This document shows positions 27,769 to 34,227 of a stretch of DNA of 64,000 nt, piece by piece. Each line of letters opens with the position of its first letter. Position 1 is the first letter of the stretch. This DNA comes from a phage: NCBI GenBank assembly GCA_025677605.1, contig GCA_025677605.1_4110.1; one strand, written 5' to 3'. The position numbers and the translations under genes were made by a program. Under the pieces are notes generated by a model. That model had not been told where the DNA came from. It was given only the letters and a program-made list of their open reading frames with translations, and searched no databases.

Positions 27769-27833
27769 GCCAGTACTCTGTACTGGCTTTTCTTATTTGT
27801 ATTAAATATAGTATAATGAATAAAGGAGGAATT
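27769..27833 (+). promoter_or_regulatory. terminator-promoter-SD cassette
   Basis: hairpin GCCAGTACTCTGTACTGGC + T-run, then ATATAGTATAAT and AAAGGAGGA. Confidence 0.6.
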
Positions 27834-28943
27834 ATGTTACCTTTTGTTAGAATGTTAGAGTATGGGAATATTGTACCCGGTCCTAAAAATATAATTAAAG
27901 TTGGTGCTTCTACACAAGGTCAATTCTTATTGACTGATTCACATGATTTATATTACATAGGTAGAAATCAAGGTGGTGAATCTGGAAATGGTAATAACAA
28001 CACGGTATCTTCATGGATATTAGTAAGTTCAGATGTTTCTAATTTTTTCGTGGGTGGTCGTACACTTGTTATTATTAAAAATGATAATACGATATGGACA
28101 TCGGGTGAAACGTACTGGTTCTCATCTTCTACAACTACTTCTTACAGTACTATATTAGTTGAAAGGACTAATTGGTTTACCAATGCTATACCAGTGAGTG
28201 AAATTGCTAATATTGTATGTACAAATGGTTTAATATTTGTACTTAGCACTAGTTCAGTACTCTATGGTGCAGGAGATAATGGATATCGTGGTTCTTTAGG
28301 TATTGGCTCATCATCGATTTACACATTAACTCAATGTGCTACTAACGTGCGTAAAGTAATGACTAATGCAAATGATAGTATGTATATTACATTAGATAAT
28401 AAGCTATATAGTTCTGGATGGAATAGCAGTGGGCAGCATGGTACAGGGGACCAAACACAAATTAACACTTGGGGATTACGTAGTTCTGGTGTAATCGATG
28501 CAGCGATTGGTGGTAATGCATTTAATTACTATAATGGTACATCATATTTCGTATGTGGTCAAACTCCAAACTTTCTTAGTTCAGGTACGACTACATTCCG
28601 TGCAGTTCCTGTAAGTACTTTGCCTAATAGTTCTCCGTTGTTTATGACGAATTCACCTGCATTAAATACTGCTACACAAATGGTAATTACTAGTACATAT
28701 CAGAAGGGTGTTGGGGCGAACCGTGGTTTGGGATTAAACAATTCTCAAACTGGTGCTATATATAGTGCTACAAATTTACAATTACCCGTTGAAGTTAGTG
28801 AGATTAGGGATGTTCTTTTTAGTGATGGTTTGACTTCAATATTAACCAAAGATGGAGATGTATATAGTACTGGAACGTATTACGCCATTCCTGGTGCAAG
28901 CGAGGATGTTGCAGTCTTTACTAAAATTGATTTACCAAAATAA
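27834..28943 (+). CDS. MLPFVRM-leader beta-propeller paralog 3 (369 aa)
   Basis: start at ATG after SD; RCC1-like GWNSSGQHGTGD repeats. Confidence 0.6.
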   Translation: MLPFVRMLEYGNIVPGPKNIIKVGASTQGQFLLTDSHDLYYIGRNQGGESGNGNNNTVSSWILVSSDVSNFFVGGRTLVIIKNDNTIWTSGETYWFSSSTTTSYSTILVERTNWFTNAIPVSEIANIVCTNGLIFVLSTSSVLYGAGDNGYRGSLGIGSSSIYTLTQCATNVRKVMTNANDSMYITLDNKLYSSGWNSSGQHGTGDQTQINTWGLRSSGVIDAAIGGNAFNYYNGTSYFVCGQTPNFLSSGTTTFRAVPVSTLPNSSPLFMTNSPALNTATQMVITSTYQKGVGANRGLGLNNSQTGAIYSATNLQLPVEVSEIRDVLFSDGLTSILTKDGDVYSTGTYYAIPGASEDVAVFTKIDLPK

Positions 28944-28949
28944 CATAAT

Positions 28950-29014
28950 GCCAGTACTTGATACTGGCTTTCTTATTTGTATTAAATATAGTATAATGAA
29001 TAAAGGAGGAATAT
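28950..29014 (+). promoter_or_regulatory. terminator-promoter-SD cassette
   Basis: hairpin GCCAGTACTTGATACTGGC + T-run; TATAGTATAAT; AAAGGAGGA. Confidence 0.6.
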
Positions 29015-30194
29015 ATGTTACCTTTTGTTAGATTGTTTGATTATGGGAATGTTGCCCCTATTAAAGATACTGTTGTTAAAATTAATAGTGATGAAAATTC
29101 AATAAGCGTATTATACAGTGACGGGTCATTATATATGCGTGGACGGAAACCAATCAGCAAAAATGGGAGTTACTGGTTCATCTTTTTTAGATAGATGGGT
29201 TTTATGTCCTTATAGTGTTGATGATTTCTGGAGTTCTTTATATTGTACTATAATTAGAACAAAACAAGGGGAATTGTACTATAGTGGAACTAACTCAGTT
29301 TTTGGTATATCATCTTCTGTTTCAACATGGACTCGTTGTGAATCATATTTTGGATCTATCTCGGCGAGTTCTATAAAAGATATAAAAATAACATCAACAA
29401 CCAGTACTAACAATTCTATGCTAATACTCACAAGTGACGGTCAGTTATATGGTATAGGCATGAATGGTGCAAGTGAATTGGGTACAGCAACTGCACCAAT
29501 TACATCTCCACTCTTAATTGACACTAGTGTAACTGCAATTGCATCTAGCGAAATGAGCAGAAACTTTCACTATATAAAAGATGGTATATATTATCGTTGT
29601 GGTGAGAATACTTTTTATCAATTAGGGACAGGTGATAATAATCCAATTACGACTTTTACTGCATTGAATCTTGCAAGTTCTCAAGTAATTGCAGTACAAG
29701 CTACACGATGGGTAACACGTTTGATTGTTCAAAGTAGTACATCTGCTTTGTCTTTAATGGCGGCTGGTTGGAACACACAGTTGACTATAGGTGGTTCTGA
29801 AAATACTGGTATAATAAGGTCATCATTTACTACAAATCCCTATACCGATATAACAGCAAATTCATTCGATAAACTTTCACCAGTATCCTATGTTAATGCA
29901 ATAAAATCCAGTACTAACATTATTAATACGAATGGTAAGGGATATAATTCTAATGGTGCTGGTTTAGGCCGCAACGCATTCTCTGGGAATTATGGTTCAA
30001 TATTACCAATAGAATTCTTTGATGATAGTGTTGACTTATCACATGTTGAGTGGTTTGGTACGATTGGTAATGGTTCAGTATCGGTAGTTAGTATAGGTGA
30101 GGATTTATACTGGACTGGAAACCCTGGGTATTTTACTGAACAAGGTGAGACTGGATATATATATAAATTCAAAAAGTGCATTCCTTTTAGATAA
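29015..30194 (+). pseudogene. MLPFVRL-leader beta-propeller paralog 4, frame-disrupted
   Basis: leader ORF 29015-29194 is in a different frame from body ORF 29118-30194; one extra nt near 29140-29150 relative to intact paralogs. Confidence 0.5.
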
Positions 30195-30201
30195 TCACAA
30201 T

Positions 30202-32703: not shown

Positions 32704-32714
32704 TTATTTTAAAT

Positions 32715-32778
32715 GCCAGTACTTGATACTGGCTTTTCTTTTTTGATTAAATATAGTATAATGTATAAAGGAGGAATT
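32715..32778 (+). promoter_or_regulatory. terminator-promoter-SD cassette
   Basis: same cassette sequence. Confidence 0.6.
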
Positions 32779-34131
32779 ATGTTACCTTTTGTAAGAATGC
32801 TAGAGTATGGGAATAAAGTTGAAGTCCCTACCGTGAAGAAATTCAACTCCATTGGTATGGGTCATGATAGGAATGGTGGTGGGAACTGGTTTGGTGCAAT
32901 ACTAGCAACTAATGGAAATTTATATGGTATTGGTCAAACAAAATATGTTTCTTTTGGTATAACACCAACCAATGGTGCAGGAGTTGAATTAGTAAGAAAA
33001 AATGTAAACAATTTTTGGTTACTATCAAATGGGATAATAGTACAAGATAATGATGGTTCATATCATTTTTGTGGTGTATATGCCAATGGTATATTCACAC
33101 ATTCAAGTATGAATACCGCACCTTTTATAACAAATGGTTTTATCAATGTCTCTTCTTATTTTGCTAACGTAGGTGAAGTTGTGGAGATGGTATTCTGTGG
33201 TGGGTATGATAAAGGACCAGCAACTTCAACAACATCACCAGCATACACATCAAAATATAGTTGCATTTTGGCAGCATTAAACAGCAATGGCGAAATCTGG
33301 TATATGGGATTGTCAATACAAGGTTTAATAAACAACTCAACATCGGATTACTACTTTACTTCTTTTACTAAAGATAATCAATTGACACAAAAAGTAGTTT
33401 CATTAAGATGCACAATAGACATGTCACACAATAATATGTATTTTGTTGGTAATAGACCTGTACTTTATGCTAAATTAGAAGATGGTACAATCGTTGGTAA
33501 GGGATATAATATACGATATGGTATACAAAAACCAGCTAGTACAAACCAAGTGATTAAAACGTGGACTACTGTAGCTACAATAGGAACAGCAGATGAATTT
33601 GATGCGACAAACGAAGGTATGATGTACTGCTCAAATTCACAACTATATCGCTGTGGTAATGGTGGTGGCTTTTCTTTCTGGAATGGAAGTAGTAGTGTGT
33701 ATTATATGGGCTACAACGTTGGTATGTTTATAATCGGTGCGGATGACGTCAACCGTGTGGCGGGTGGTTTCAACGTCCTAACTACAGGGATAAAAGATGG
33801 CGTAGGTATAAATGTACCGACTTCATCCAGTACTAAAATACGAATGAACTACTGTGGAACTGTAATTTTTGAACCAGGAACAACATCAATATATAAAGCA
33901 CATGGTGTTTATAGTGATTACTACGCTAGTCCTTCGTGGCAAGAGGGAGCAGTCGCTTCATTTACATATGAAGACATTGGTATTCGAATTAAAGATGCTA
34001 TGTATGTTGGTGGTACTCTTGGGTTTACAACATATGGACTATTAGTGGTTAGTACTGAAGGTAAAGTATATTGGAGAGGTGTGTATAACGGTACAACATA
34101 TCAAACACTCACAGAAATACAATTGTTGTAA
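32779..34131 (+). CDS. MLPFVRM-leader beta-propeller paralog 7 (450 aa)
   Basis: start at ATG after SD. Confidence 0.6.
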   Translation: MLPFVRMLEYGNKVEVPTVKKFNSIGMGHDRNGGGNWFGAILATNGNLYGIGQTKYVSFGITPTNGAGVELVRKNVNNFWLLSNGIIVQDNDGSYHFCGVYANGIFTHSSMNTAPFITNGFINVSSYFANVGEVVEMVFCGGYDKGPATSTTSPAYTSKYSCILAALNSNGEIWYMGLSIQGLINNSTSDYYFTSFTKDNQLTQKVVSLRCTIDMSHNNMYFVGNRPVLYAKLEDGTIVGKGYNIRYGIQKPASTNQVIKTWTTVATIGTADEFDATNEGMMYCSNSQLYRCGNGGGFSFWNGSSSVYYMGYNVGMFIIGADDVNRVAGGFNVLTTGIKDGVGINVPTSSSTKIRMNYCGTVIFEPGTTSIYKAHGVYSDYYASPSWQEGAVASFTYEDIGIRIKDAMYVGGTLGFTTYGLLVVSTEGKVYWRGVYNGTTYQTLTEIQLL

Positions 34132-34140
34132 TACTAATAT

Positions 34141-34227
34141 GCCAGTACTTCAAGTGCTGGCTTTTTTGTATATTATATAAGATATATTTTAATTAAATAC
34201 GTAGTATATCATAAGGAGAATAATAAA
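34141..34227 (+). promoter_or_regulatory. degenerate terminator-promoter cassette
   Basis: hairpin GCCAGTACTTCAAGTGCTGGC + T-run; divergent promoter/SD (AAGGAGAA). Confidence 0.45.

Follow-up and report, generated by a model that had tools for sequence, protein, structure and literature searches.

What makes the beta-propeller gene arrays of jumbo coliphages differ between phages that are otherwise nearly identical? The question is raised by a 64-kb stretch of phage DNA (contig GCA_025677605.1_4110.1, assembly GCA_025677605.1; here termed the window) that belongs to the Asteriusvirus jumbo coliphages, an approximately 350-kb group including 121Q, PBECO4, phAPEC6, and A4 (37 records matched by megablast). 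Between 25.7 and 38.4 kb, a plus-strand block of nine beta-propeller genes is set between minus-strand early genes. In public annotation, these genes are titled "regulator of chromosome condensation" or "DNA condensation protein", and eight of them carry the N-terminus MLPFxRMxxYGN. The many RCC1-like copies and their variability are mentioned in published papers, and the variability of these multi-copy genes between near-identical Asteriusviruses has repeatedly been noted without explanation. A cassette of regulatory and coding DNA that is repeated in front of the genes now provides a concrete mechanism with mapped junctions. The cassette likely acts as a recombination substrate, a reading that is given a probability of about 0.75.

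The full unit takes on a fixed order. The stop codon of the preceding gene is followed by a hairpin (GCCAGTAC-loop-GTACTGGC), a T-run, the element (G/T)ATTAAATATAGTATAATGAATAAAGGAGGAAnT, and the coding start ATG TTA CCT TTT Gnn AGA ATG ... TAY GGR AAT. Six array genes are preceded by the hairpin and T-run, the TAAATATAGTATAAT box, and the Shine-Dalgarno (SD) sequence AAGGAGG. The cassette hairpins (Table 1) have stems of 6-9 bp with folding energies of -6.5 to -16.4 kcal/mol (z -3.1 to -5.4), each is followed by a T-run, and they are also recovered by a terminator scan. Their stem is kept and their loop is variable across the cassettes of ten genomes. In sequence, they have the build of an intrinsic terminator, a GC-rich hairpin and then a T-run located 3' of a stop codon. 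The public record of G17 annotates ARNOLD terminators at the cassette sites, and that of UE-S1 a 105-bp "repeat_region". An Rfam scan of 25-39 kb at E <= 1 returned sub-threshold chance hits only and no known RNA family in the cassettes.

The repeat finder groups the cassettes into a 119-nt family of five copies (starting at 27767, 28947, 30199, 31461, and 32712) and an additional 37-nt core family. The 17-mer TTAAATATAGTATAATG is present in six exact copies that are all located on the plus strand within the array, with no others in the 64 kb. A 46-nt pattern that spans the box, the SD, and the first codons has five matches at three or fewer mismatches, compared to 0.00 expected from 100 shuffles. 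The sequence of cassette copy 6 is matched at 359 places in 42 phage records. An earlier note on this DNA had described six repeats of about 100 bp, the last of them, at 34141, as degenerate. Repeat finder, exact-word, and pattern matches establish that all six are real and that the last one is degenerate. The count itself was too low, as two copies had been overlooked: one without a hairpin (25664-25745) and one consisting of SD and leader only (26607-26654). The note was also right that the homology reaches into the open reading frame (ORF). ATGTTACCTTTTGTTAGAATG is found with zero or one mismatch at the seven starts at 25710, 26619, 27834, 29015, 30266, 31528, and 32779, and in degenerate form at 34227.

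Behind this shared head, the genes have little in common. The bodies of the window paralogs share 25-28% amino acid identity, compared to 86-95% DNA identity for the cassettes (-47 to +36), and identity falls sharply at about codon 12-15. The modular character of the array becomes evident from the relatives. The arrays of nine relatives and the window were collected, and their 97 units were clustered by body sequence into 31 types. The ten arrays contain 5-12 units, whose order is listed in Table 1. The unit that follows type B is H, J, N, K, or G depending on the phage, and 15 of the 113 co-occurring type pairs stand in conflicting order. These opposite orders imply that gene loss alone is insufficient to produce the arrays. 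All megablast homology blocks between the window array and the relatives start at -75 to 0 and end at +20 to +63 of a cassette ATG, or end at the last hairpin, a pattern that by itself could stem from the cassettes being everywhere. Even A4, the closest record to the window on both array flanks (97.1% on the left, 98.4% on the right), differs by whole units: N is absent from the window, H stands in place of J, and the window contains a fuller W.

An alternative explanation would be that the 5' unit is conserved solely for the needs of promoter, ribosome-binding site, and leader, and that the arrays differ through vertical descent and differential gene loss. It can draw on a leader peptide that is conserved across genera with different codons, which is a real functional constraint, and on TAAATA and the SD as plausible functional signals. 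The order conflicts, however, are impossible by loss alone, and exact junctions are located inside the cassette.

Two three-way alignments put exact recombinant junctions in the SD or first codons. The Q-D junction of the window consists of the upstream flank of the A4 Q-N junction and the downstream sequence of the A4 N-D junction, with the crossover inside the identical GGAGGAATTATG plus 45 coding nt. The two genomes are 97-99% identical and differ here by the insertion or deletion of one unit (1.2 kb), at cassette copy 2. The second case comes from two distant relatives, the Salmonella phage Munch and the Klebsiella phage fENko-Kae01 (Kae01). Gene 2 of fENko-Kae01 joins the upstream flank of Munch gene 2 to the body of Munch gene 5 through a crossover in 32 identical nt (the first 10 codons). 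The Munch/Kae01 junctions contain neither hairpin nor promoter, and the flanking gene bodies are 99.7% identical in protein. A third case, P>U in G17 versus P>S>U in phAPEC6, was seen by eye in the cassette table. Cassette copy 4 is itself a chimera: other cassettes that lie downstream of B match its upstream half, and those of the H genes in EC.P1 and JNE01 match its downstream half. Cassette-bounded exchange, which the earlier note had anticipated, is borne out by the order conflicts, the block ends, and the two exact junctions, and the relatives are neither colinear nor strictly vertical in descent.

The location of the crossovers also bears on the possibility that the hairpins are sites of a site-specific recombinase that moves gene units in the manner of integron attC sites or a shufflon. 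A conserved palindrome (GCCAGTAC...GTACTGGC) at the end of each unit is superficially like gene-plus-attC cassettes. The mapped crossovers, however, fall in SD and leader coding sequence at hairpin-free junctions (K>B vs K>J and P>S vs P>U included), all repeats are direct, and no recombinase is annotated in or beside the arrays examined. Moreover, the loop varies freely while the stem is kept, as expected for a terminator. Such a recombinase is extremely improbable.

The cassettes and the bodies differ in their rate of change. In the five units shared by the window and A4, 35 of 476 cassette positions (7.4%) differ, compared to 80 of 5793 body positions (1.4%), an approximately 5-fold excess (Fisher P = 3e-13). 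Three of the six differences between gene Q and its A4 counterpart lie within the first 36 nt. When orthologues from different genomes are paired, identity amounts to 92% for the body, 88% for the first 36 nt, and 79% for the 50 nt upstream. As the cassettes differ more than the bodies between orthologues, purifying selection alone does not account for them. For 51 of 95 units, the most similar cassette is found in another genome in front of another body type. The leaders are at the same time homogenized at the nucleotide level: codons 2, 3, and 6 are TTA, CCT, and AGA in 96-97% of the 97 units versus 47%, 31%, and 41% in the bodies, and codons 9 and 11 are mostly AAG and GGG, which are both rare in the bodies. 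These features indicate a protein-level constraint on the leader combined with continuing gene conversion and crossover that move cassette variants among units. Conservation by constraint alone is largely refuted by the order conflicts, the junctions, and the divergence contrast. A five-fold faster divergence of the cassettes between the closest relatives is the opposite of simple purifying selection, and synonymous codons are fixed far above body usage. It is very improbable as a full explanation.

A mechanism can be proposed for the cassette as a recombination substrate. The short GC-rich hairpin and the T-run would end or attenuate the transcript of the upstream gene. A late-class promoter (TAAATA, TATAAT 4 nt downstream, no -35) and a strong SD would then turn each gene into an insulated late transcription unit. 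The twelve-codon leader M-[LI]-P-F-x-R-[MI]-x-x-Y-G-N, located outside of the propeller fold, may send the proteins to the virion. As the same approximately 50-110 bp precede unalignable bodies, they would offer homology to the recombination system of the phage, and the cassettes could serve as portable sites for crossover or gene conversion, in a single genome as well as between relatives that infect the same cell. Through unequal crossover and gene conversion, whole units would be deleted, inserted, replaced, and reordered, with the expression signals and the leader left intact. In the relative Sharanji, a RecA-like recombinase is annotated (PMC11895373).

The promoter of the cassette is set apart from the early promoters of the window, which comprise more than 20 minus-strand sites with a perfect TTGACA-N16/17-TATAAT. 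At 16-18 nt upstream of the cassette TATAAT, nothing resembles TTGACA (the best hexamer is TTTTCT, 3/6), and the cassette sites are absent from a sigma-70 consensus promoter scan of the window. The proposal of the earlier note that the promoter lacks a -35 and differs in class from the early promoters is sustained; the invariant element, though, is TAAATA and not TATAGTATAAT. Each of the 86 cassettes with an intergenic region contains an exact TAAATA, mostly 31-32 nt ahead of the ATG and 4 nt upstream of TATAAT. Together with its complement TATTTA, TAAATA is by far the least frequent AT-only hexamer of the window (19 copies; median about 110, Markov expectation 71). It is likewise the rarest one in a separate 50 kb of 121Q (145-195 kb, which lies outside the structural region), and the rarity suggests selection against stray promoter cores. 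In the structural region of 121Q, TAAATA is located 30-60 nt upstream of 13 of 49 gene starts versus 0.62 expected (P = 2e-13), including those of tail sheath, long tail fibre, and "structural protein" genes. TATAAATA precedes the only virion structural gene that the window contains outside of the array. Being invariant in the cassettes, rare elsewhere, and enriched before structural genes, TAAATA points to a cassette promoter that probably belongs to the T4-like late class of the phage. This assignment fits the virion proteomics of phAPEC6, which detected array products. Among related phages, CBB and GAP32 have a predicted late motif, ATAAATA, and for CBB a gp55-like gene is reported but no gp33 or gp45 homologues (PMC5259590).

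The cassette promoter resembles T4-type late promoters (TATAAATA) in its TAAATA core, in the missing -35, in its location upstream of virion genes, and in the AT-rich sequence that follows. The full 8-mer of the cassette differs, reading TTAAATAT rather than TATAAATA, and a conserved TATAAT is adjacent. This TATAAT might instead be the -10 of a sigma-70-family promoter that does without a -35 and is served by host sigma-70 with an activator or by the RpoD-like sigma factor of the phage, as the earlier note had suggested. Most copies carry a perfect TATAAT, and the leftmost cassette of most relatives reads as an extended -10 (TGaTATAAT). The sigma-70-family ORF at 59840-60802 (minus strand) matches Pfam regions 2 and 3 and not region 4, which would suit -35 independence, and it is a possible but less favoured factor for the cassette promoter. 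Conservation of TATAAT is 83-97% per position, however, with the last T lowest (83%) and TATAAC in seven cassettes. The decayed cassettes at the last position (window W and its relative, type T, of 121Q and PBECO4) have kept TAAATA and lost TATAAT, and genome depletion and structural-gene enrichment concern TAAATA, not TATAAT. A start 7 nt past TATAAT would leave a leader of about 11 nt only. A -10-only promoter is therefore the unlikely assignment, though one that retains some weight, and the T4-like late class is preferred. The 121Q protein annotated as "putative sigma 54" was rejected as a candidate, as it is a hibernation-factor-like protein and not a sigma factor.

The products of the array are propellers of two kinds that share one leader. 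RCC1/RLD profiles (PF25390/PF00415) match seven of the nine products, namely D, B, H, A, C, W, and that of the large gene at the right end; the matches fall short of the curated cut-off but have E values of 1e-7 to 1e-23. Gene Q matches Kelch repeats (E = 8.5e-25), and BLASTP finds no significant similarity between its body and the other array bodies. The AlphaFold model of gene C takes on a seven-bladed propeller fold (mean predicted local distance difference test score, pLDDT, of 83; predicted template-modelling score of 0.83) that aligns to UVR8, RCC1, and RPGR at template-modelling scores (TM) of 0.62-0.78. Residues 1-19, which include the conserved leader, have a pLDDT near 50 and are placed outside of the propeller. 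M[LI]PFxR[MI]xxYGN heads 97 Asteriusvirus units and 11 genes of Munch and Kae01. Positions 5, 8, and 9 vary in amino acid, and positions 2-4, 6-7, and 10-12 are fixed. The leader of Munch and Kae01, MIPF[AT]RILxYGN, has a matching peptide pattern with a different, lineage-specific codon set. Several Munch/Kae01 bodies are nearer to the Asteriusvirus types G, V, and a27 than to their own paralogs, which implies that the array is older than the split of the genera.

Eight array products (gp003, 005, 006, 007, 009, 010, 549, and 551) were identified in phAPEC6 virions by mass spectrometry (PMC7247149), and one Kae01 member is annotated in its record as detected by liquid chromatography-tandem mass spectrometry. 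The presence of products in virions, the conservation of the leader across genera, and its occurrence on a Kelch-type body lead to the hypothesis that the leader is a virion-incorporation tag. Targeting of the propellers to the virion can tentatively be taken as its role. Alternatively, the first 12 codons might be conserved for translation initiation, for other mRNA-level reasons, or as recombination homology, with no virion-targeting role for the peptide. Nucleotide conservation does exceed the amino acid constraint, and the leader contains no recognisable cleavage or docking motif. Nevertheless, another genus cluster keeps the peptide pattern with other codons, amino acid changes are confined to positions 5, 8, and 9 with 2-4, 6-7, and 10-12 constant, a Kelch-type body bears the identical pattern, and array products are present in virions (PMC7247149). 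Conservation for nucleic acid reasons only is improbable compared to the tag. A bolder extension of the tag hypothesis, which is rather doubtful, would make the leader a portable tag that serves packaging or docking to the capsid or the tail "hair". On this view, the array would amount to a shuffled wardrobe of interchangeable propeller payloads, either adhesins or injected anti-defence proteins, that co-infecting jumbo phages trade unit by unit via the cassette. If true, the array would be the late-gene jumbo-phage counterpart of the internal-protein (IP) system of T-even phages and would provide a natural tag to load cargo onto virions.

Several points weigh against the cassette as a recombination substrate or against parts of the mechanism built on it. 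Selection for intact genes would, like the ubiquity of the cassettes, favour homology block boundaries at gene edges. Cassette identity is 87.4% within genomes versus 84.9% between genomes, which amounts to weak homogenization; within-genome concerted evolution was dropped as a main claim for this weak signal, in favour of the decoupling of cassette and body, the lineage-specific codons, and the contrast in divergence, and the cassettes look like a pool common to the phages rather than a set strictly concerted in one genome. Some rearrangements bypass the cassettes altogether. A4 lost the W cassette and the first approximately 200 nt of W by a deletion between two copies of the 11-nt microhomology GTAATACTAAT (window 34128-34428 vs A4 9627-9640), and a second internal deletion removed most of the remaining W, so that the decay of W in A4 is microhomology-mediated and not cassette-mediated. 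The cassette hairpins, being short, may merely attenuate transcription. The strong conservation of TATAAT leaves some, if minor, room for the sigma-70-type -10. The gene C model was built on a shallow alignment of 13 sequences, and the homologue search with gene C gave 9 proteins.

A second type of intergenic cassette occurs after body types L and M in UE-S1, EC.P1, JNE01, and ph0011. It consists of GGTCAGTACTGAAATATGTACTGG, a T-run, GTAAATAC..TATAAT, and GGAGAT. This L/M-type cassette is joined to differing downstream bodies (M>B, M>a28, M>A, and L>J).

The closest known systems are the PeSLs (promoter-early stem-loops) of T4-type phages, titled "mobile regulatory cassettes" (Arbiol et al. 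2010, PMC2839356; Comeau et al. 2014, PMC4122927). These terminator/promoter/SD repeats of about 100 bp mark the limits of indels and replacements in hyperplastic regions. Both kinds of element are composite terminator/promoter repeats of about 100 bp that run up to the SD and start codon of the gene that they precede. They cluster in a hyperplastic region with motif-bounded indels or replacements between close relatives, the shuffled gene brings its own expression signals, and a stem-loop that in sequence is able to terminate or attenuate is located next to the promoter. The propeller cassette would thus work like a PeSL but lacks the defining early promoter. PeSLs carry a sigma-70 early consensus with -35 and -10, whereas the propeller cassette has a late-type TAAATA box and no -35. 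In the propeller cassettes, the first 36-45 nt of the ORF belong to the homology and encode a common leader peptide. These cassettes flank one family of virion-associated propellers, whereas PeSLs flank unrelated ORFans, and their host is a Rak2-like jumbo phage. The minus strand of the window contains PeSL-like repeats of its own (2069, 2410, 3918, 4407, 7283, 7553, 8637, 8936, 9208, 10128, 46166, and others). They consist of AAAAAGTA, a perfect TTGACA-N16-TATAAT, and, about 10 nt later, a GGGGAGAA-loop-TTCTCCCC hairpin, and they head many of the small early ORFs. The minus strand has another repeated promoter type, GGTTGACTTCGGTCAGCCCTTTTTGCTATAAT, at 42494, 43917, 44646, and 47114, with a hairpin over its -35 (GGTTGAC-TTCG-GTCAGCC) and an extended -10 (TGCTATAAT).

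The IP loci of T-even phages are a second precedent. Their genes are described as varying in number, order, and identity, with virion-packaged products that share a short N-terminal leader, and shuffling among relatives is proposed (PMC3012670, PMC12373910, and PMC4122927, citing Repoila et al. 1994). The propeller array is likewise polymorphic in gene number, order, and identity, and it likewise puts a short leader in front of proteins with little other similarity. Whereas IPs are small, have no relation to one another, and are packaged within the capsid, the array products are propellers of 300-450 aa that are known as virion-associated only. The leader of T4 IPs is cleaved at (L/I)xE by the prohead protease. 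No conserved motif of this kind is present in the propeller leaders: a search for the T4 protease-type cleavage motif found none, and the leaders have no conserved Glu, reading mostly RMVKYGN and in some cases RMLEYGN. The exchange of receptor-binding proteins via a conserved N-terminal anchor, known from tail fibres, tailspikes, and the T4 gp37/gp38 adhesin mosaics (PMC3157838), is a third parallel. A conserved N-terminal part is combined with a variable distal domain, and recombination takes place at conserved sequence. The conserved part of the propellers, however, consists of 12-20 residues and non-coding DNA and not of a folded anchor domain. An adsorption role of the propellers is speculative, as it is based on the unassigned hairy fibres of phAPEC6 and 121Q.

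The shuffling principle is thus conceptually anticipated by PeSLs and IP loci, and the literature search found no paper that describes the cassette or its role. The propeller array carries this idea, regulatory repeats serving as handles for recombination, over to late virion genes, to another lineage, and to a homology with a coding part, the leader. Three leads follow: TAAATA as the late-promoter core of the Asteriusvirus group, a candidate virion-targeting leader common to RCC1-like and Kelch-like propellers, and a defined hot spot for engineering or predicting host-range or anti-defence differences between therapeutic jumbo phages.

Table 1. Cassettes, genes, and flanking signals of the propeller array in the window, and order of the body types in the ten arrays.
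Feature	Position	Strand	Description
Cassette copy 1	25664..25745	+	T-run, TAAATATAGTATAAT box (25679), AAGGAGG, ATG 25710, 12 leader codons; no hairpin
Cassette copy 2	26607..26654	+	SD and leader only, no hairpin or promoter; gene D directly after Q
Cassette copy 3	27768..27869	+	hairpin 27768-27788, T-run, TAAATA 27803, SD, ATG 27834, leader
Cassette copy 4	28950..29050	+	chimeric; hairpin 28950-28968, TAAATA 28983, ATG 29015
Cassette copy 5	30202..30301	+	hairpin 30202-30220, TAAATA 30235, ATG 30266
Cassette copy 6	31464..31563	+	hairpin 31464-31482, TAAATA 31497, ATG 31528
Cassette copy 7	32715..32814	+	hairpin 32715-32733, TAAATA 32748, ATG 32779
Cassette copy 8	34141..34262	+	degenerate; hairpin 34141-34161, TAAATA 34194 kept, TATAAT changed to TATATC, leader MLPFVQMFVYGK
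Divergent sigma-70-like promoter	25633..25661	-	TTGACA-17-TACTAT; serves minus-strand small-ORF block; adjoins first cassette
Gene Q	25710..26606	+	Kelch-repeat propeller with MLPFVRMFKYGN leader; 99.3% identical to A4_245
Gene D	26619..27761	+	RCC1-like propeller
Gene B	27834..28943	+	RCC1-like propeller
Gene H	29015..30194	+	RCC1-like, +1 frameshift near 29140; A4 has body type J at same position
Gene A	30266..31456	+	RCC1-like propeller; sole body type found in all ten arrays
Gene C	31528..32703	+	RCC1-like, seven-bladed propeller by structure prediction
Gene E	32779..34131	+	divergent member, 450 aa; PHROG family match (phrog_4219), no Pfam match
Gene W	34227..35385 (34227-34385 + 34462-35385)	+	frameshifted RCC1-like pseudogene; only remnant in A4
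Large gene	35413..38387	+	GTAAATACATTAGAAT box, then large RCC1-like gene without MLPF leader; probable start ATG 35454
Terminator hairpin	38389..38415	both	strong, bidirectional; ends plus-strand block
Array order, window			Q D B H A C E W
Array order, A4			Q N D B J A C E
Array order, 121Q			F D B N A I X G O P S T
Array order, phAPEC6			Y D B K J A I G O P S U
Array order, PBECO4			K B N F A H G C V T
Array order, G17			Z K B J F D A I O a26 P U
Array order, EC.P1			F a27 L M a28 B H a29 A C E a30
Array order, JNE01			K B H M A G E C V
Array order, UE-S1			F L M B G I A C R
Array order, ph0011			L J A E R

Individual genes of the array show further peculiarities. Gene H is split by the same +1 frameshift, CGTGGACGGAAAC (29130-29145), in all four phages that carry it (the window, EC.P1, JNE01, and PBECO4). 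Variation in its long downstream frame falls mostly on third codon positions (11:4:28). Gene H could be a pseudogene that is conserved, or frameshifting or a restart could allow its expression. The large gene (35454-38387) is one ORF in the window and is annotated as two (A4_237 and A4_236) in A4, at 98.4% DNA identity.

At the left edge of the array, the TGTCAA complement of the TTGACA in the divergent promoter at 25633..25661 is conserved in the relatives. Directly left of the propeller array, about 12 small paralogous ORFs of 60-80 aa are arranged in tandem on the minus strand (21777-25607). This run represents a second paralog array, in which many members start with MxKE(F/Y)Y and end with (I/L/A)(F/Y)x(Y/F). 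An ORF of 169 aa (19535-20044, minus strand) between early-gene blocks has a homing-endonuclease-type look, as judged by eye only.

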